Source of the DNA: Minisyncoccota bacterium
Lineage (GTDB): Bacteria; Patescibacteriota; Minisyncoccia; Minisyncoccales; JAQTPW01
Direction of reading: 5' to 3'
DNA: 64,000 bases
Assembly: GCA_028712565.1 (NCBI GenBank)
Contig: JAQTPW010000001.1
Location: 77,114-141,113, forward strand
Below the pieces are notes generated by a model. The model saw only the letters and a list, made by a program, of their open reading frames with translations. It was not told the DNA's origin and searched no databases. Positions within the stretch are counted from its first letter, which is position 1. Each line of letters begins with the position of its first letter. A program made the translations under genes and the position numbers. This document shows positions 5,689-55,999 of this stretch, piece after piece.

Positions 5689-8595
5689 TTACCAGTTAAA
5701 GGGAGTAATTTCTCTCCACCAAGGATAAGGTCTTTTTACATTAATTTCTTTGGTTAATACGCATGAGTATCCTGAAGAATCGGATGCCTCTAGTTTAATT
5801 TCTTGATCTTCTCCGATTGGAAATTTAACCGTAATTGTGCAATCAGAATTTTTGTTCCCGGTAACCATATTTGTTCCATTGGGCAAAGTCCACTTGCAAT
5901 TTTCAATACTGTATCCGGGGGCGGCTTCAGAAGTGCTTCTTAAGGTGACTGGCGCATTCTCAACTATTCTTGTGCTTTCACAATCATTATCATCGCAGAG
6001 GAAATCCACAAATGGCGATGGATGGGATTGGGTTGAAATGGTGACTGATGGAGTTGACCAATTAGACCAAAGGCCGCCATAAGATATTCCAAACTCGTCA
6101 ACAACATCGTCTTTTACACGGACTCTCCAATAATAAGTTTGATTGTAGCCAATTTTTGGATTATTGCAGTCATTATCCGGCAAAGTGGAAACTTTTAAGG
6201 CCGAAGTTCCTTCTCCATTCGGCAGAACAAGTTCGTCATGCGTGCAGTCAATATCAATAGATGCAAAACTTGGGTCAGTGGAAACTTGGAATTGGTATTG
6301 CGTTTGATTATTGCCATCATCATCTTTATAAGTCCAGCCCAAATTAATTTGGCCTTGCCATGCAATTGGAAGACAGTATTTTTCGGCAGTTATTCCCGGA
6401 GCGCTGACTTTCGGTCGCTTATCAACAAAAATTCGCTTTCCGGCAGGTACCGATTCATTTCCAGCCAAATCTATGCAATGTGCATATGCGTAATGATTTC
6501 CCGCATCCATAAATGCATAAGCGATTTTCGCCACACCTTTTTTATTATCCGCGGGGTCGGAGAAGCTAATAGCCATTTCGCCATTAAAAGAATAATTTGT
6601 TGGTGAATCTTCGGCAGAAATTTGAAAATCACAAGAATGTTCTCCAAATCCAGATCCGGTTCCGGAAGTTAAATTTAAGTCAGAAATATCAGAAGAAAAT
6701 ACTTCGCTTTCACCACGTGGAGCAACAAAAGGGACAATACGAGTTACTGTGGGCGCAGTCCAGTCAATACTAAAACTTCTGCAGGCGTTTGGGGTCAAAG
6801 GATCAGAACAATCTGTGCTTACATTATTCCGCAGGTCAGTTGCCCGGACCGAGATTTTGCATTTATTATTTCCTTGGGAATGGCAACTTTTAGCAGCTCC
6901 AACTAAAATATTTTTATTTATTACAAAATTAGTTCCGTTGCAAGGTATATTAGTCCAAGAATCTACAGGCGGAGTAATTACAGCCCCAGAATCGTCAAAG
7001 CTTTGAACCAGATATTCACATTTTAGCAATCCGCCGTTATCAGTAAATTTAAATCCAGCGCTAAGACTTGGTGATTTTTGCCAGGAGCCAGCAGCCGGGG
7101 AAATAATTTCAGCTTTTGGTATTTCCGTATCCTCACCTATATTAAATTTTCTTGAAGCCGTTGGTCCTTGATTTCCGGCGCAATCTACAGACCACACTCT
7201 TATTTCGCAAGTTAATGCTTCGCCATTTGCGAAAACAGTTCTAGTGCAGTCTTTGGAAATATCGCCAGTTTCTCCGGTAGTAATCGCAAAATTAGAAGAA
7301 TTGCCGCTTTTCCCCCAAGGCCTTGTCAATTTATTATCACAGCCGCGTACACAACTTCCATGATCCAAAATTTTATAGTATGCGGTTCCTTGGCCGGAAG
7401 GAGGAGTTGGAGGCGGAGAATCATTATCAAGGATGTGGGCTGTAAAACTGGAATTAACCGGTATATATGCGCCTTCAGGAGGCGTATCGCCTTCAAAAAT
7501 TGAATCGGGTCCCTTTGTATCAAGGGTGGCATTATTGGGAGTTATAGTTTTCGAAAATGTTTCTGTATTCCCAGCCACATCTGTGCAGGTAATATATACT
7601 TTAGTTCCTACAGCGCAAAACGTATAAGATGTATAAATGGTGCGGTTCATTTTAGTGCCGCCAGCCTCTGTGTCTGCAGGCGCTTCGTATTCATATGAAC
7701 CATCATTATTCGTATCAATGTAGAAAAGGCAACTTTGTATTTCCATATTATCGGTGACGTCAGCGCGCAACAATGTCGGAGTATAAAAGAGAGCTGAGGT
7801 AGGCCGAAGGTTTGCAATAACAGGTTTTTCCCAATCAACAGCTATTTTCCACTCTGCAGTAGTGTAAGTATTTCCAGCTCTGTCTTTTGTAATACCTTTA
7901 ATTTTACACATATCAGCTCCTTGCTCGTGGCAATTTTTTCCAATACCTACTGTGACAGGCTGGTCTCTATCGGTTTCAAAAGCGCCCGAGCAAGCTGCGC
8001 CGGAAATAATAACTTCAGGATCACTTCCGCTGGTAACAGAATAGTCGCAGGAGCTTAATTTCGAAACTTTACTCGAAGTCAAGCCGCCGGGATTATCCGA
8101 ATATTTAATATGAACCGTAAAATCATTCTTTGCCCAGCGTTTTCCGACGCCATCCAAAGGAAGAACAGGATTCGTGCTCCCCGGGATCACAGCAGATACA
8201 TACCAGTCAGTATTATAAACTCTCGTATGGTTTGCGCTGGGAATTCCATCAGCATTTTTTGAGTAGACAATGACGGTGCAGGTATTTACGCCATTAGACG
8301 GGCAATTGTTCTTAACGACTTCAAAAGACCAATCACTATTACAAATTCGCGAAGCATTGGCTACGGTAAAACCGCCGCCATGCGATATTTTATAAAAACA
8401 TGTGCAAGGTGCAACATCGCATGTATCTTTGACATCAAACCAATTTCCATTCTCTTTGTTAGATAGCCAAGAGCCCGCAGCCGGATCCATTATTCTGGAA
8501 ATTGGTGCAGCCTCTGCGTTTGAAAGAATGACAAAGCTGAAAAATAAAAAGAAGGCGAAAAATAAAACTATTTTAAAGGAGAAATTTTTTTTCAT
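5689..8595 (-). CDS. Large secreted Cys-rich protein (signal peptide; many NxT/S sites and paired cysteines)
   Basis: 968 aa ORF; N-terminus MKKNFSFKIVLFFAFFLFFSFVILSNAEA is a signal peptide; no recognisable enzymatic motif. Confidence 0.7.
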   Translation of the reverse strand: MKKNFSFKIVLFFAFFLFFSFVILSNAEAAPISRIMDPAAGSWLSNKENGNWFDVKDTCDVAPCTCFYKISHGGGFTVANASRICNSDWSFEVVKNNCPSNGVNTCTVIVYSKNADGIPSANHTRVYNTDWYVSAVIPGSTNPVLPLDGVGKRWAKNDFTVHIKYSDNPGGLTSSKVSKLSSCDYSVTSGSDPEVIISGAACSGAFETDRDQPVTVGIGKNCHEQGADMCKIKGITKDRAGNTYTTAEWKIAVDWEKPVIANLRPTSALFYTPTLLRADVTDNMEIQSCLFYIDTNNDGSYEYEAPADTEAGGTKMNRTIYTSYTFCAVGTKVYITCTDVAGNTETFSKTITPNNATLDTKGPDSIFEGDTPPEGAYIPVNSSFTAHILDNDSPPPTPPSGQGTAYYKILDHGSCVRGCDNKLTRPWGKSGNSSNFAITTGETGDISKDCTRTVFANGEALTCEIRVWSVDCAGNQGPTASRKFNIGEDTEIPKAEIISPAAGSWQKSPSLSAGFKFTDNGGLLKCEYLVQSFDDSGAVITPPVDSWTNIPCNGTNFVINKNILVGAAKSCHSQGNNKCKISVRATDLRNNVSTDCSDPLTPNACRSFSIDWTAPTVTRIVPFVAPRGESEVFSSDISDLNLTSGTGSGFGEHSCDFQISAEDSPTNYSFNGEMAISFSDPADNKKGVAKIAYAFMDAGNHYAYAHCIDLAGNESVPAGKRIFVDKRPKVSAPGITAEKYCLPIAWQGQINLGWTYKDDDGNNQTQYQFQVSTDPSFASIDIDCTHDELVLPNGEGTSALKVSTLPDNDCNNPKIGYNQTYYWRVRVKDDVVDEFGISYGGLWSNWSTPSVTISTQSHPSPFVDFLCDDNDCESTRIVENAPVTLRSTSEAAPGYSIENCKWTLPNGTNMVTGNKNSDCTITVKFPIGEDQEIKLEASDSSGYSCVLTKEINVKRPYPWWREITPFNW

Positions 8596-8596
8596 T

Positions 8597-9037
8597 TTAT
8601 TGGGGCATCACCTCTATTGAAGTGACGCTGTTAATTTTTGTTTTATTGGCAATATTTTCTGAACTGGTAAGAAAAACCTGCTGGCCTTCTTTTAGTTCAG
8701 AAATTGTTATTGTCGTTTCTGTAGGAGTAAAAGTGATTTCTTGCGGAGGATTATTAATATCAAAAGGAAATTCTATCTTTGTAATTTTTGTTGCGGCGCT
8801 AATTACCGCAGTTACGGGTTTTGCATTTTCTTCAATAGGATTAATAACTATTGTATACTTTCTGGCATCAACCTTTGAAACAAAACCATTTAATTCAAAT
8901 ATTTTTTCGGTAGTTTCTGTAAAATTGGCTGGCTCGGCTGGATTGAATTTATAATAATACATAAAATAAGCTCCTGCCGCCAAAGCCGCGAAAAATAAGA
9001 TTAAAATGAGGAAAAAAATAGGTTTTGATTTTTTCAT
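8597..9037 (-). CDS. N-terminally membrane-anchored hypothetical protein, translationally coupled to the downstream large secreted protein
   Basis: 146 aa; TM segment IFFLILILFFAALAAGAYF; its stop overlaps the next gene's start. Confidence 0.6.
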   Translation of the reverse strand: MKKSKPIFFLILILFFAALAAGAYFMYYYKFNPAEPANFTETTEKIFELNGFVSKVDARKYTIVINPIEENAKPVTAVISAATKITKIEFPFDINNPPQEITFTPTETTITISELKEGQQVFLTSSENIANKTKINSVTSIEVMPQ

Positions 9038-9182
9038 AGTTGTTTTTTTATTTTACCACAAAACTACTTGTCAAGGAACAACTTGCAAAATAAGAAAAGG
9101 GGTTATATATTAGAGTAAGATAATAAAATATTTTTCATATTTTTGCCCTTTAAAATAAGCAACAGTTAGAAGGAGGTGCGTA

Positions 9183-52253: not shown

Positions 52254-53195
52254 TTAATATCTCTCCCCCCGAACTAAAATTTTTATTGCCGAAATCAGCC
52301 TGTTTCTCATTAAAATCAAAATTATAATACTCGCCAATATTATTAATCCGAATTTCCAAGGGAAAGCCCAAAATGTAATCACGACCGGAACCAAAGAATT
52401 TTCAGAACCATAGGTACCTGTAATTGTTGCGGTATATTTTCCAGCCCAAAACCATTTTTTATCCAAGACAGCATCGAATTTTCGCACTGCGCGAGGCAAA
52501 ACATTTTGTTGTTTTATCGTCGCAACGCCAACTTTTTGTCCAAGCCAATTCGTAACCGTAACCATGGCCAATGGCCGCACGTGAACATTTCCTAAATTTT
52601 CGAATTTAGCATTAAAATAAACCGGCCCGTATTCAAAATAAGGAATAGTGCTGGAAACATAAAAATCTTTAACAGCCAAAAATTCTTTCATTTTGCCGGG
52701 CGTGGTCAATAAAACCAGTGTTCCAATTCTTGTAACAAGCGCGGTGCCTGTAATATTAGACCCTGCAATTGATGCGCTGGCAGCCAAGACAGTTCCATAA
52801 TGGCCGCCGGGCTCAGCATTATTAGGAATTGTAATCGAAAAACTTACCCATTGGGATTGCCCGGGCTCCAAGACAAATTCATTTGGAGTGCATTTTATCC
52901 AGTTTGCCAACGAATAGGTTTCTGTTTCGGCCGGTTCAGGAATTACATAACCTGCTTCGCCAGTGGGCGCTATATCTTCAACAGCCATTTTAATACCGAC
53001 CTGGCTATCGCTGGGGTTTGAAATTTTTACCTGATTTTCAATTACTTCACCAGGGTTTCCGGTCAATTCAAAAACTGTCGGAGATACAGCGATAGTAGTT
53101 GCAGCATTGATAACCTGCCTATTGCAAAATCCGAATAAACACACACCCATCAAACAAATGATGAGCCATCTTCTCATAATAAAAAAATATACCAC
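52254..53195 (-). CDS. Membrane-anchored surface protein, DUF916-like (paralog of the C-terminal part of 54384..55931)
   Basis: Signal peptide; SPTVFELTGNPGE...AEPGGHYGTVL...FWAFPWKFGLIILASIIILILMRNR C-terminal TM; family assignment is from memory and uncertain. Confidence 0.45.
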   Translation of the reverse strand: MVYFFIMRRWLIICLMGVCLFGFCNRQVINAATTIAVSPTVFELTGNPGEVIENQVKISNPSDSQVGIKMAVEDIAPTGEAGYVIPEPAETETYSLANWIKCTPNEFVLEPGQSQWVSFSITIPNNAEPGGHYGTVLAASASIAGSNITGTALVTRIGTLVLLTTPGKMKEFLAVKDFYVSSTIPYFEYGPVYFNAKFENLGNVHVRPLAMVTVTNWLGQKVGVATIKQQNVLPRAVRKFDAVLDKKWFWAGKYTATITGTYGSENSLVPVVITFWAFPWKFGLIILASIIILILMRNRLISAIKILVRGERY

Positions 53196-53214
53196 GAAAA
53201 TAAGTGGTTGTAAA

Positions 53215-53847
53215 CTAGGATGCTGGAAGCAGGGTAAAGTCTATTGTATCAGTGTAGGTTCCTGCTGTTTTCTGATTAGACGTAGTTGCTTTAAATCTTA
53301 CATCAATTATCTGACCAGACTCTGGCACTCCATTCGTTGCCAAGGTTTGTGCGGTTGTCGAAGCAGTTCCAACTATTTGAAGAGGTTCATTATCCCAATA
53401 ATTATATATCGGGTCAATAGTTGCGTCGCTGGAACTTGCCTGGACCCCATAGCCGTCAGTTCCGATTTCAATAGTAGTGCTTCCCGAAGCGTGACTTGCA
53501 ATAGATGTTGCATTATAGATTAATGCGGCATTATCGCTCTTAACAGTCAGACTAAATCCATCATCGTGGTTTGTTCCGCATGTTAGAGTCACGATTTGGC
53601 TGGTACCTGTTGCAAGATTTCCCGATGTATCAACTAGGGCGGGCAAAATTGCAACGCTTGTTGTAGAGCCAGTAATTGAAAGCCATTCAGAAACTGTAGC
53701 TGTAACAGTTACGGAAGTAGCGGCAGCTAAAGCATTATTTGTTGACGGCTTCATTCCGAATAAACTAACAACGCCCACGATTGCCAAAACCAACCCAATA
53801 AATAAAACTAGATTTATTTCCCAATTCTTCTTAATTCTTTCTGCCAT
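53215..53847 (-). CDS. Secreted WxL-domain-like protein
   Basis: N-terminal TM/signal; SEWLSITG near the N-terminus and C-terminal GTYTDTIDFTLLPAS resembling the Y.GTLTWTL.D.P WxL motif; 210 aa. Confidence 0.4.
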   Translation of the reverse strand: MAERIKKNWEINLVLFIGLVLAIVGVVSLFGMKPSTNNALAAATSVTVTATVSEWLSITGSTTSVAILPALVDTSGNLATGTSQIVTLTCGTNHDDGFSLTVKSDNAALIYNATSIASHASGSTTIEIGTDGYGVQASSSDATIDPIYNYWDNEPLQIVGTASTTAQTLATNGVPESGQIIDVRFKATTSNQKTAGTYTDTIDFTLLPAS

Positions 53848-54006
53848 TCTTATTAATTTTTAGATTGATTTTTAATTTCTACCCCTCGACCTGTCAGGTA
53901 GTTTTTATACTTTGTTTATTATAGCATAAAAATTCATGTCAAGCTGTGGAAAAGTCAAAAGGATATCAAATATCAAAAATAAAATATCAAATAGGCATTA
54001 ATGGCT

Positions 54007-54402
54007 TCAAGCAGAATTTCTTTTTCCTTTCAATGTAAGAATACTTGAAGCAAAGATGCGGGAAATTTCTGTAAGTTCATTTAGCAACCATTCTGTTTCC
54101 ATAGTTTTATCATAATTCAAATCTTTTAAAATTGCCAGCCAAACTTTGCTTTCATTTGCGGATTTTAAAGAATGATTAAAAAAATTCGTATAATCTTTTC
54201 GTGAACTGGCCGCTTTTCCCTCGATATAATTGGCGAGAATGCTTGTCCCGCTTCTCACTAATTGGTCTCCTAAAATTCGTGTTGTTCTATTTTCAGGTAA
54301 TTTATCAACAAAACGAATGAGTCGCAGAACAAATTGATAAAGTCTTCGTTTAAAATCTTCGCTTTTTGAAAAATCCCGTTTGATCATATTTTTCCAGCCC
54401 AA
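54007..54402 (-). CDS. Four-helix-bundle protein (TIGR02436 / intervening-sequence-type protein)
   Basis: RTTRILGDQLVRSGTSILANYIEGKAASSRKDYTNFFNHSLKSANESKVWL is the hallmark of this family; 131 aa. Confidence 0.75.
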   Translation of the reverse strand: MGWKNMIKRDFSKSEDFKRRLYQFVLRLIRFVDKLPENRTTRILGDQLVRSGTSILANYIEGKAASSRKDYTNFFNHSLKSANESKVWLAILKDLNYDKTMETEWLLNELTEISRIFASSILTLKGKRNSA

Positions 54403-55931
54403 GGTTGGTCCGCCTTGGGCGGAGATTTTTGATTTTTAAGATTTGATTTAAATATCATTCGTACTGCTGCAAAAATCCGTTTCCGCAATAAAATCAAAAT
54501 GCCCAAAGCAAATGTGATTATTAAGATTATTTTCCACGGGAAAATCCAAAAGCCTAATGTTTGATTTAATTCTATTTGGTTTTTTTCTTCTTCTAATTCC
54601 AATACTATTTTATATTTACCAAAAGAATTATTTTGGTAAATAAAATTAGAAAGGAAAGCAGGCAGCCATTTTATTTTATTCGCTGGAATCTCAGAAAAAC
54701 TGACTGGGAATTTGCGGATTTTCCCGGGCAAAATTGTTGTTTTTTTAACTTCTGACTCCCCTACTTTTTTCCCAAAGGAATTATAAACTAAAATTTTGCC
54801 GTTTAGTTTGTGATGATAAATATCATTATTTTTAATCCGCAAAATTACAGAATCCGGAGTTTTTTCAACGATGCTTACTTCAGCTGCTTGGACTCCGGGA
54901 ACCACATCAACTAAACTTGCCATAACTTTTCCCAAATTTTGCAAAGTTTTTTCTTTTGGGATTTTGAATTCAACAATCTCAACTAAATTTTTAGATTCTA
55001 AAGGTTCAAGCGAAAAAACTCTAACCGATATTAAAAATAAAACTCCGACAATAGGAACGGTTTTTGGCTGGCCTTCTTTAAAATAAAACGAAGGAAGTTG
55101 GGGTTCAAAAAGAATTACCGAATAATGGCCGCCGGGCTCGGCTTCTTTTGGGATTGAAATTTCGAAATTTATAACTTCGGTTTCGTTTACGTCTAAAATA
55201 AAATCTGCTTTTTCAAAATTAAACCATTTTCTTGAGGCAATTGAAATGTCTTGTGAAGCATCATCAAATTCCATTTCTCCAGAATCGTCTTTTGCGGTAA
55301 AATCCGTAGTTCTTATAGAAATAGGAAGCGGGACATCGCTTAGATTTTTGACATTTATTCTCCTGATAATTTTTTCTCCGGGGAAAACTTCCAATTCAAA
55401 AACTTGAGGAGAGACAGACAAACCAAGTTTAGCTACACCTTCTGCTTTTGCTGTAATGGGGAAAAATAAATTAGCCATTATATAGAAGCTGATGAACGCA
55501 GATAGCAACGCTGATTTACGCTGAAACGTTTTTTCTCTTGCCTTATCATAAATTCTTCTTTTTATTTCCAATTTCTTTGGTCCGAAGTTTATTAATAACC
55601 CCAGCTTATATTTTGAACCTTTGAGGTATAACCAAAATTGTCTCTCATCTTCTCGAGTTAAAAACGGCTTGCATTTAATTTCTAACAAAACAGCATTATT
55701 GATAATTTTATCGGGAACATATGAGGCAATTTTCTTGTCCCGAAAATAAACGTCTATTATTTTTTGACTTTCTACATTTAAGCCGAGATTTTTTAGTTCT
55801 ACATTTAAAGCCCTATCAACAACCTTTTCTTTAAATGCTCCGCCAAATTCTTTCCATACTTCAAAACACGCTCCTCTAATTAAGTAGGTTTCTTTTTCAT
55901 AAAGAAAATCTTTTACAATTTTTTTATCCAT
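54384..55931 (-). CDS. In-frame fusion ORF: N-terminal GxxExxY-family module (~140 aa) followed by a DUF916-like membrane-anchored surface protein
   Basis: N-terminus LIRGACFEVWKEFG...KYKLGLLINFGPKKLEIKRRIY (GLLINFG hallmark); remainder is paralogous to 52254..53195. The GxxExxY part lies inside a TIR-bounded element. Confidence 0.5.
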   Translation of the reverse strand: MDKKIVKDFLYEKETYLIRGACFEVWKEFGGAFKEKVVDRALNVELKNLGLNVESQKIIDVYFRDKKIASYVPDKIINNAVLLEIKCKPFLTREDERQFWLYLKGSKYKLGLLINFGPKKLEIKRRIYDKAREKTFQRKSALLSAFISFYIMANLFFPITAKAEGVAKLGLSVSPQVFELEVFPGEKIIRRINVKNLSDVPLPISIRTTDFTAKDDSGEMEFDDASQDISIASRKWFNFEKADFILDVNETEVINFEISIPKEAEPGGHYSVILFEPQLPSFYFKEGQPKTVPIVGVLFLISVRVFSLEPLESKNLVEIVEFKIPKEKTLQNLGKVMASLVDVVPGVQAAEVSIVEKTPDSVILRIKNNDIYHHKLNGKILVYNSFGKKVGESEVKKTTILPGKIRKFPVSFSEIPANKIKWLPAFLSNFIYQNNSFGKYKIVLELEEEKNQIELNQTLGFWIFPWKIILIITFALGILILLRKRIFAAVRMIFKSNLKNQKSPPKADQPWAGKI

Positions 55932-55993
55932 ATTTTTTATCAGCGTTTTTCTTATCAGCGTTTTTCAGCGTTGGTATCAGCGTTCATCAGCTT
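55486..55993. mobile_element. About 508-bp MITE-like element carrying the GxxExxY ORF, bounded by terminal inverted repeats
   Basis: aagctgatgaacgcagata (55486-55504) versus the reverse complement of tatcagcgttcatcagctt (55975-55993), 18/19 identical, with extended imperfect similarity to ~40 bp; atcagcg(tt) is iterated at the right end. Confidence 0.5.
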
Positions 55994-55999
55994 ATATTT

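Follow-up and report, generated by a model that had tools for sequence, protein, structure and literature searches.

The DNA analyzed here, a stretch of 64,000 nucleotides from contig JAQTPW010000001.1 (hereafter the window, meaning the whole of that stretch), comes from a metagenome-assembled genome of Candidatus Pacebacteria, within the Patescibacteria or candidate phyla radiation (CPR). On its minus strand lie all of the genes of interest: a giant open reading frame (ORF), a 210-residue secreted protein and, on either side of the latter, two paralogous membrane-anchored proteins, DUF916a and DUF916b, followed by genes for proteins with dockerin and cohesin domains. A preliminary description of the window, made from its letters, had given the same coordinates and had compared the paralogs and the 210-residue protein with the WxL/csc surface complexes of Firmicutes. 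We consider it moderately likely that the locus is a divergent CPR counterpart of the Firmicutes WxL/csc complex, tethering a giant adhesin.

DUF916a and DUF916b are WxLIP homologs

DUF916a (minus strand, 53195/53150–52254) is 313 residues long from the GTG start at 53195 called by the ORF tool, or 298 residues from the ATG at 53150 used by NCBI, where it is labelled "DUF916 domain-containing protein". DUF916b (minus strand, 55508–54384, approximately 350–374 residues) is the more divergent WxLIP-like paralog, with an ectodomain and a C-terminal transmembrane helix. The two are related at 25% identity over approximately 330 columns (BLASTP, E 2e-27), and both carry the motifs VSPxVFEL..PGE, AEPGGHY and FWxFPWK followed by a hydrophobic C-terminal helix, such that the earlier account of two paralogs with shared motifs and a C-terminal helix, flanking the 210-residue protein, is borne out. 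An N-terminal hydrophobic leader is seen in the sequence of DUF916a, in which a signal peptide is followed by two tandem immunoglobulin-like (Ig-like) β-sandwich domains and a C-terminal transmembrane helix; this membrane-anchor helix (minus strand, 52358–52269) comes directly after FWAFPWK, and the protein ends in the hydrophobic stretch GLIILASIIILILM and then basic residues.

In the Pfam scan, PF06030 (WxLIP_PGBD/DUF916) matches DUF916a with 29.0–29.2 bits against a cut-off of 27.3 (E 1e-6), and it is the top family in all 85 of the 85 DUF916 homologs (best E 9.9e-10), in agreement with the DUF916 assignment of the preliminary description. PF11797 (WxLIP_HBD, formerly DUF3324) is absent from the DUF916a of the window in the same scan, and matches 7 of the 85 homologs weakly (best E 0.0023). 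As a Firmicutes reference we used annotated plasmid WxL clusters from Enterococcus, Bacillus, Pediococcus, Lactiplantibacillus and Companilactobacillus, which provided one alignment of nine small WxL proteins and one of six "DUF916 and DUF3324 domain-containing" proteins. The CPR DUF916 profile scored a probability of 97.1% in hhalign against the Firmicutes WxLIP profile (E 5.6e-11), over 244 columns covering both domains, with the alignment to full-length WxLIP reaching into the second domain (columns up to 277 of 355). The same link was found in both directions by plain hidden Markov model (HMM) searches. A sequence search of the PDB with the CPR DUF916 and 210-residue profiles returned nothing useful, though both 9i25_A and 9i25_C are present in that database.

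The AlphaFold2 model of DUF916a (predicted local distance difference test, pLDDT, of 83) contains 18 strands in two blocks, followed by helices at residues 265–280 and 282–294. Its best match in the PDB by Foldseek is 9i25_C, the Enterococcus faecium protein EfmWxLIP1 (E 6.1e-13, template modelling (TM) scores of 0.51/0.59, approximately 262 columns), and its second is 9i1y_A, again EfmWxLIP1 (E 7.9e-12), after which chaperones of chaperone-usher systems and RbmA follow. We note that the entry title of 9i25_C reads "WxLIP bound to long WxL"; a solved WxLIP–WxL complex now exists. Because the profile alignment, the HMM searches, the architecture of the AlphaFold2 model and the solved WxLIP as its best match all agree, both CPR paralogs are WxLIP homologs, apparently full ones and not isolated DUF916 domains. 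The homology also appears to cover the DUF3324-equivalent domain and the C-terminal membrane anchor (hhalign, Foldseek and the AlphaFold2 model), as had been proposed for the anchor from the sequence.

The conserved N-terminal motif of WxLIP, NQIDKxxxYFDLK (PMC10599100), is not kept in the CPR family, which has (I/V)SP(L/T)xFEL(T)GNPG instead, and only the aromatic-acidic-Leu core (YFDL/FEL) aligns. A second segment of the first domain of DUF916a is a hairpin at residues ~58–84 of the 298-residue form (EDIAPTGEAGYVIPEPAETETYSLANW; minus strand, 52979–52899), which is modelled at a pLDDT of 55–58 against 86–94 for its flanks, and which, with the consensus EDIAPTGE.G.V.VEPAETETYS, is among the most conserved segments across the 85 homologs. 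Low pLDDT together with high conservation is expected of a segment that becomes ordered only on binding. In hhalign, the hairpin aligns with the conserved A.T..NGV..Y of Firmicutes WxLIP. For WxLIP itself, AlphaFold2 predicts that a hairpin, unstructured alone, completes the WxL sandwich (PMC10599100), and the DUF916a hairpin, our proposed strand donor, is presumably the same loop that is predicted there to insert into WxL.

The family is not new to CPR genomes. DUF916-only proteins are listed in Kazan bacterium and TM7x (PMC10599100, Table S5), and with the NCBI name of DUF916a they show that DUF916 annotation in CPR genomes is already known and that the preliminary description, which called these genes normally Firmicutes-restricted, overstated the case for DUF916. 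In the open-access literature we found no paper tying DUF916 to Patescibacteria, and no mention of it in a Saccharibacteria genetics paper. The "PGBD" proteins highly expressed in cultured Paceibacteria (PMC10936435) were considered and set aside, as theirs is a 1lbu-type PG_binding domain and not WxLIP_PGBD.

The 210-residue protein and the giant protein

The 210-residue protein (minus strand, 53847–53215; "hypothetical protein" at NCBI, PHF44_00730) has an N-terminal signal or anchor helix and then a single β-sandwich domain of approximately 165 residues, modelled by AlphaFold2 at a pLDDT of 90.6. The 210-residue protein and DUF916a are each 100% identical to an NCBI protein. No Pfam or NCBIfam family was matched by the 210-residue protein, and it belongs to an unannotated β-sandwich family, with the conserved motifs GTN...G[FWY]S[IL]T, GYG and, at the C-terminal end, G.Y.DTITLT. 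HMMER, run exhaustively against 1.84 billion representative proteins, recovered 546 relatives at E ≤ 1e-3. The domain, which we refer to as the partner domain, comes in two forms, either as a stand-alone protein of ~205–220 residues, or as the last ~165 residues of proteins of 290–1,154 residues; across proteins of 190–1,154 residues, the matches stop 1–3 residues from the C-terminus. Among 146 representative relatives scanned, the N-terminal parts of the larger proteins carry the adhesin-type domains DUF2341, FG-GAP, Kelch, BNR, Big_1 and fn3. We also observed that two representative partner-domain proteins match DUF2102, described as conserved in archaea, and that another carries Hint/intein-type domains, including PT-HINT.

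The best PDB matches of the 210-residue model in Foldseek are CfaB, Caf1, CsuA/B, the pilin domain of PapG, type 1 pilins and the TasA fibre, at E 7e-4 to 5e-2, with one match at E ≤ 0.001 and TM scores of up to 0.53 normalized to the target and at most 0.39 normalized to the query. The only recurring Pfam signal is SCPU (PF05229), in 6 of 43 family members, each below the cut-off of 22.4 bits (best E 0.052). TasA has been reported in Patescibacteria (PMC9245690). Kinship of the 210-residue family with TasA/camelysin was rejected, as there is no PF12389 match and the Foldseek match is weak and at rank 10.

First in transcription order is the giant ORF (minus strand, 64000–56000), of more than 2,666 residues within the window, with its frame still open at the window edge and its N-terminus outside. 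The giant has no Pfam match; seven of the related loci described below (L007, L008 and L013–L017) have an equivalent large protein at this position, with lengths from 1,064 to over 2,800 residues. Its terminal domain, approximately 190 residues (minus strand, 56572–56003) that end in VYEGTIYLTCTANY at the stop codon, has conserved counterparts in the corresponding giants of two further genomes, and the 210-residue family aligned with the three giant C-termini at 80% probability in hhalign (E 1.4e-5, 150 collinear columns), and at 82% in global mode (E 1.2e-6). Between the 210-residue protein and the giant themselves, direct BLASTP gave no significant match and single-sequence hhalign scored 40%. 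With an HMM of the giant C-terminus, the domain was detected in many loci as the C-terminal end of a large ORF that lies upstream of DUF916b. On these profile comparisons, the C-terminal domain of the giant is a probable homolog of the domain of the 210-residue protein, and, by analogy, the giant is a putative adhesin or passenger tethered through a C-terminal partner domain.

The remainder of the giant within the window is rich in repeats. There are at least eight repeats of approximately 53 residues (..SIAIG.DGYPVISY....DL.FAKC....C..) with paired cysteines, and four of the form GGS.FYNLTFNG..G.W.FQDDATT.NDLT.T, the first three of which are approximately 260 residues apart, with the fourth approximately 75 residues after the third. 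At the window edge, the sequence is rich in glycine.

Conservation of the operon and neighboring genes

Scanning one genome per GTDB species with the DUF916a alignment yielded 221 relatives, from which 80 loci were retained. Going by their record titles, nearly all of these are from Patescibacteria, among them Nealson-, Uhr-, Veblen-, Terry- and Berkelbacteria and Saccharibacteria. The order that recurs, nearly unchanged, is a giant with the C-terminal domain, DUF916b, a protein of approximately 210 residues, DUF916a, a dockerin protein and two to five cohesin-type proteins, and this order is found in full in L007, L008, L013–L017, L020, L023, L026 and L047. Counts upstream were made on the 56 loci with at least 3 kb of upstream sequence, and counts downstream on the 69 loci with enough downstream sequence. 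A partner-domain ORF lies within 6 kb in 40 of the 56, a second DUF916-like paralog is present in 48, a larger ORF with a C-terminal partner domain in 37, and the small and large forms occur together in 12. Directly downstream of the DUF916 gene there is a dockerin homolog in 40 of the 69 loci, and cohesin homologs follow downstream in 41. The link to cohesin-dockerin genes noted in the preliminary description is therefore conserved in related genomes and not incidental. The Saccharibacteria variant has two WxLIP-like proteins and no cohesin or dockerin; in one such locus, read closely, three proteins carry partner-domain motifs, two of which are found by the family HMM. Some contigs labelled Aminicenantia, Gammaproteobacteria, Elusimicrobia or Bacteroidia (L029, L050, L051 and L075; P0052/P0148) bear the full CPR-type operon, probably through mis-binning of CPR contigs rather than true occurrence outside the group.

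In the window, the dockerin-bearing protein (320 residues; minus strand, 52142–51180) combines Big_6 and Big_13 Ig domains (PF17936 and PF19077) with a C-terminal dockerin (PF00404, E 9e-7, 29.4 bits against a cut-off of 22.9). Between its signal peptide and the Ig domains we observed a cysteine-rich segment and then nine glycines (CGDTSCNGGETCATCPVDCGNCGGGGGGGGG). Three membrane-anchored proteins of 305, 440 and 561 residues follow (minus strand, 51172–47254), with cohesin domains in the first two (PF00963, 25.0 and 38.4 bits against a cut-off of 24.1). The 561-residue protein has no Pfam cohesin match, and cross-matches the same downstream ORFs as the 305- and 440-residue proteins. No annotated protein of the operon matches a carbohydrate-active enzyme family in Pfam.

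Two further coding parts had been missed in the preliminary description. The first ~135 residues of the 515-residue ORF that encodes DUF916b, second in transcription order (minus strand, 55931–54384), are a GxxExxY/PD-(D/E)XK domain in frame (PF13366, E 3e-27; TIGR04256), which is why NCBI names the whole product "GxxExxY protein" (MDD5145367.1). The DUF916-like part begins near residue 142–165, and is 56% identical to a stand-alone ortholog of 352 residues in L008, a related Parcubacteria locus, which has its own start, MKKLLKK. The second is a four-helix-bundle gene (126/131 residues; minus strand, 54402–54007) between the 515-residue ORF and the 210-residue gene, which matches PF05635/TIGR02436, the "23S rRNA intervening sequence protein" family, and whose ATG overlaps the stop codon of DUF916b (ATGA).

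The sequence around these parts has several features that we record here. The GxxExxY coding part (~55527–55931) is bracketed by a 43-nucleotide inverted repeat, 86% complementary, with arms at 55482–55524 and 55955–55997, and upstream of the region there are three direct copies of TATCAGCGTT, as if a discrete cassette had been inserted. Since the downstream arm is itself within the reading frame, coding for some of the hydrophobic leader of DUF916b (..QRKSALLSAFISFY..), the cassette forms an in-frame fusion with the surface-protein gene. At the other end, a GC-rich hairpin with a 9-bp stem (54397–54420) encodes an extra C-terminal tail of DUF916b (..PPKADQPWAGKI) that is absent from the L008 ortholog; DUF916b has been remodelled at both ends by small inserted genes. 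In the related Parcubacteria genome of L008 and L009, the operon has two AAA_14/DUF4143 ATPase genes between the giant and DUF916b (L008, 5364–8132) and, after the dockerin gene, a separate PDDEXK_3 (GxxExxY) gene (L008, 12038–12424). Small mobile or selfish genes seem to land in this operon repeatedly. In L007/L011 (~8250–9140), DUF916b is split into three ORFs of 108, 151 and 67 residues, each matching part of the family HMM, probably as a pseudogene or through an assembly frameshift.

Rfam and tRNA scans of the window gave no match, and a promoter and terminator scan found no enrichment of promoter-like sites, with 12 found against 12.6 expected in shuffled sequence. In the 160-nucleotide gap 5′ of the 210-residue gene (53860–54006) we observed TTGACA, 13 nucleotides and then TGCTATAAT, an extended −10-like sequence; this pair is not in the list of the automatic scan.

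The proposed surface complex and known systems

The CPR counterpart of the WxL/csc complex that we propose would consist of one conserved part, the WxLIP homologs, and one part that has been replaced or has diverged beyond recognition, the partner domain, a division to which we give the same modest preference as to the proposal itself. All of the proteins would be exported, and each WxLIP-like protein would be held at the membrane by its C-terminal helix. By analogy with the prediction for WxLIP, the hairpin, unstructured alone, may insert as an extra strand into the partner sandwich, and both partners, small protein and giant alike, would in this way stay on the cell surface. The long repeat-rich N-terminal part of the giant would then project outward as the adhesin, while the downstream dockerin and cohesin proteins would add a second non-covalent scaffold. 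A conserved hairpin of low pLDDT, taken together with the conserved adjacency of the genes, points toward hairpin–strand binding of the partner, and the conserved gene order suggests that the giant pairs with DUF916b, and the small protein with DUF916a. It is from such features that we infer physical binding, strand insertion, one-to-one pairing and the adhesin role.

Several results weigh against this proposal. DUF916b reaches 20.1 bits with PF06030 (E 6.7e-4), under the cut-off of 27.3, and, fused as it is here to a GxxExxY domain, it may be impaired. By the narrow HMMs used, 16 of the 56 loci are without a partner domain. The family HMM alone misses the giant of the window at E ≤ 10, and the link between giant and partner comes from one profile–profile result with a three-sequence alignment. 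As for the relationship to WxL, PF13731 is absent from the 210-residue protein, from all 43 close relatives (E ≤ 10) and from all 146 representative relatives (E ≤ 0.01). The profile of the 210-residue protein scored 1.6% in hhalign against nine genuine small WxL proteins, over the last 22 columns only, and global mode produced no alignment between the partner family and WxL. That profile found no sequence match to the solved WxL chain 9i25_A, which is present in the database, and 9i25_A lies outside the top 50 Foldseek PDB matches of the 210-residue model. With no link between the partner domain and WxL, it is gene adjacency and analogy that point to binding of this domain by the WxLIP homologs. 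The 210-residue protein is not a detectable WxL-domain protein, and of the family assignments made earlier, that of DUF916/WxLIP stands, whereas that of WxL does not.

It is unlikely, in our view, that the partner domain is nevertheless a true, extremely diverged WxL domain, and the locus a strict WxL cluster including peptidoglycan binding. The size of small WxL proteins, the C-terminal position and the pairing of a small with a large protein beside a WxLIP are all matched, and the motifs are collinear by eye, with GTN...G[FWY]S[IL]T[IV] facing D.RGTG.GWTLTV and G.Y.DTITLT facing G.Y..TLTWTL. The ~106 residues between the two motifs correspond to the spacing in small WxL proteins (PMC9772566), GWSL or GWTV stands literally at motif 1 in some family members, and the sole hhalign and HMM matches sit on these two motifs in the same order. 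However, the statistics are negative throughout (Pfam 0 of 189, hhalign 1.6% local and 0% global, HMM E > 1 among only 760 ORFs), and the solved WxL chain falls where stated above. Furthermore, the tryptophans that define WxL are not conserved in the partner family, whose consensus at the candidate positions of the two Trp-x-Leu motifs is G[FWY]S[IL]T and ITLT. The WxL-like motifs pointed out in the preliminary description, SEWLSI and GTYTDTIDFTLLPAS, do occur literally in the 210-residue protein, but SEWLSI is the first strand of its domain and not the positional equivalent of WxL motif 1, and its tryptophan falls outside the columns conserved in the alignment of 43 family members. As the collinear motifs fall short of significance, we treat them as grounds for a rival reading and not as a result.

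Quite unlikely, too, is a usherless donor-strand fibre, in which the 210-residue protein would be a pilin-like subunit, the giant the tip adhesin, and the DUF916 proteins a membrane-bound chaperone and anchor. The preliminary description had named SCPU folds as the finding that would speak against its assignments, and the 210-residue protein does have weak SCPU and chaperone-usher pilin matches, while the paralogs match DUF916. The best PDB matches of the 210-residue model are donor-strand-complemented subunits, and 6 of 43 family members weakly match SCPU, the Csu-type pilin family; these structural matches are, however, weak (a single one at E ≤ 0.001, query-normalized TM of at most 0.39), and the SCPU matches are all far under the cut-off. 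The DUF916a model matches CfaA, FimC, CsuC and Caf1M at E ~1e-10 to 1e-8, but after WxLIP, and every chaperone is outscored by the solved WxLIP. In addition, a conserved TV.VTATV directly after the signal peptide has no strand assigned in the monomer model, as would suit a donor strand, yet the giants have an equivalent segment, and it thus looks like an ordinary first strand. It is doubtful, to the same degree, that the partner is a pilin-like strand-accepting sandwich, with the WxLIP-like proteins as membrane-anchored chaperone equivalents and the operon as a usherless donor-strand system in a monoderm cell. If this were true, the operon would be an evolutionary bridge between chaperone-usher pili and Firmicutes WxL clusters, and a device holding the giant host-attachment adhesins of episymbiotic CPR bacteria; since the cluster is also present in Saccharibacteria, which include cultivated, genetically tractable members, the donor-strand reading is directly testable.

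Finally, it is highly improbable that the locus is only a cohesin-dockerin or cell-envelope gene cluster that resembles a WxL cluster by coincidence, its DUF916-like proteins being generic membrane proteins of the Ig fold with no functional tie to their neighbors, as, despite a Pfam score barely over the cut-off, weak matches to fn3_5 and NPCBM_assoc and many two-Ig-domain proteins among the Foldseek matches of DUF916a, PF06030 is the top family throughout the homologs, both domains align with WxLIP at 97% probability, the solved WxLIP is the best structural match, the architecture is identical to WxLIP down to the C-terminal membrane helix, and the adjacency of DUF916 and partner genes is kept across distant classes, including Saccharibacteria without cohesin-dockerin genes.

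Returning to a CPR counterpart of the WxL/csc complex, what appears to be new is the set of complete WxLIP homologs, a dedicated and unrecognized partner family, and a widely conserved CPR surface operon that includes cohesin-dockerin genes. The CPR records of "DUF916 alone" (PMC10599100, Table S5) probably missed their partners because no partner HMM exists. The partner domain is a concrete new family that can be modelled, entered in Pfam and applied in searches for CPR adhesins.

CPR bacteria are thought to live attached to host cells, and beyond type IV pili we know of essentially no proteins that display their very large adhesins. WxLIP-type anchors, a partner domain carried by hundreds of surface proteins, small and giant, and the cohesin-dockerin proteins together make up a conserved candidate display apparatus, and the range of the presumed WxLIP mechanism would reach far beyond Firmicutes. 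The locus is thus a testable candidate for adhesin display in episymbionts, of interest to specialists in CPR biology and in cell surfaces.

Among known systems, the downstream genes recall cohesin-dockerin scaffolds of the cellulosome type in their Pfam cohesin and dockerin domains and their C-terminal membrane anchors, within the same conserved operon. Unlike in cellulosome-type scaffolds, there are no carbohydrate-active enzyme families by Pfam among the annotated operon proteins, and the Saccharibacteria form of the cluster lacks these genes. In the window, the cohesin-dockerin pair probably has a part in surface architecture or in attachment.

The resemblance to chaperone-usher pili (CfaA/CfaB, Caf1M/Caf1, CsuC/CsuA/B (SCPU) and FimC/FimA) lies in a two-Ig-domain helper encoded beside an Ig-like subunit, in weak structural matches to both components, in what may by analogy be the same logic of strand donation and, as in the tip adhesins FimH and PapG, in a large protein with a C-terminal subunit-like domain. 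The helper differs in being membrane-anchored and not soluble and periplasmic, and the similarity scores are low. An outer membrane is not expected in CPR bacteria, and no usher was seen among the annotated operon proteins, where no exhaustive search of the window for one was made.

Compared with WxL proteins (PF13731; CscB/CscC, SwpA/LwpA; PDB 9i25_A), the partner domain is likewise a secreted β-sandwich of ~165–180 residues, always at the C-terminal end and encoded beside a WxLIP, with a small domain-only form, a large form behind adhesin-type domains, and a C-terminal G.Y..T.T.T strand motif. It differs in having no detectable sequence or profile homology to WxL, in its unconserved Trp-x-Leu motifs, and in that WxL is not among its top structural matches. 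The layout of small plus large proteins with the domain always C-terminal is that described for WxL clusters (PMC9772566, PMC10599100), and the likeness to csc/WxL clusters noted from the sequence holds in that there is a small domain-only protein, a large protein apparently with the same C-terminal domain, and an anchor protein. By the strict definition of such a cluster, at least one WxLIP and at least two adjacent WxL genes, the locus has two WxLIP homologs and no gene that qualifies as WxL; if the partner domain stands in for WxL, this layout is present in the window and in the loci with the full gene order.

The closest comparison is with WxLIP itself (DUF916-DUF3324-transmembrane helix; CscA of Lactiplantibacillus plantarum, DufA of Enterococcus faecium; PDB 9i1y and 9i25_C). 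Here the differences are an identity of ~16%, a CPR signature (AEPGGHYG and FW.FPWK) with no equivalent among the conserved columns of the six-sequence Firmicutes alignment, a second domain that rarely reaches PF11797, usually two DUF916 paralogs per locus against one in the commonest Firmicutes cluster, and a monoderm CPR host in place of a Firmicute. What the CPR proteins share with WxLIP is a signal peptide, two tandem Ig-like domains and a C-terminal membrane helix, the PF06030 match and the best structural match, a conserved and poorly ordered hairpin in the first domain of DUF916a, and a gene beside those of one small and one large secreted protein that have a C-terminal domain in common.

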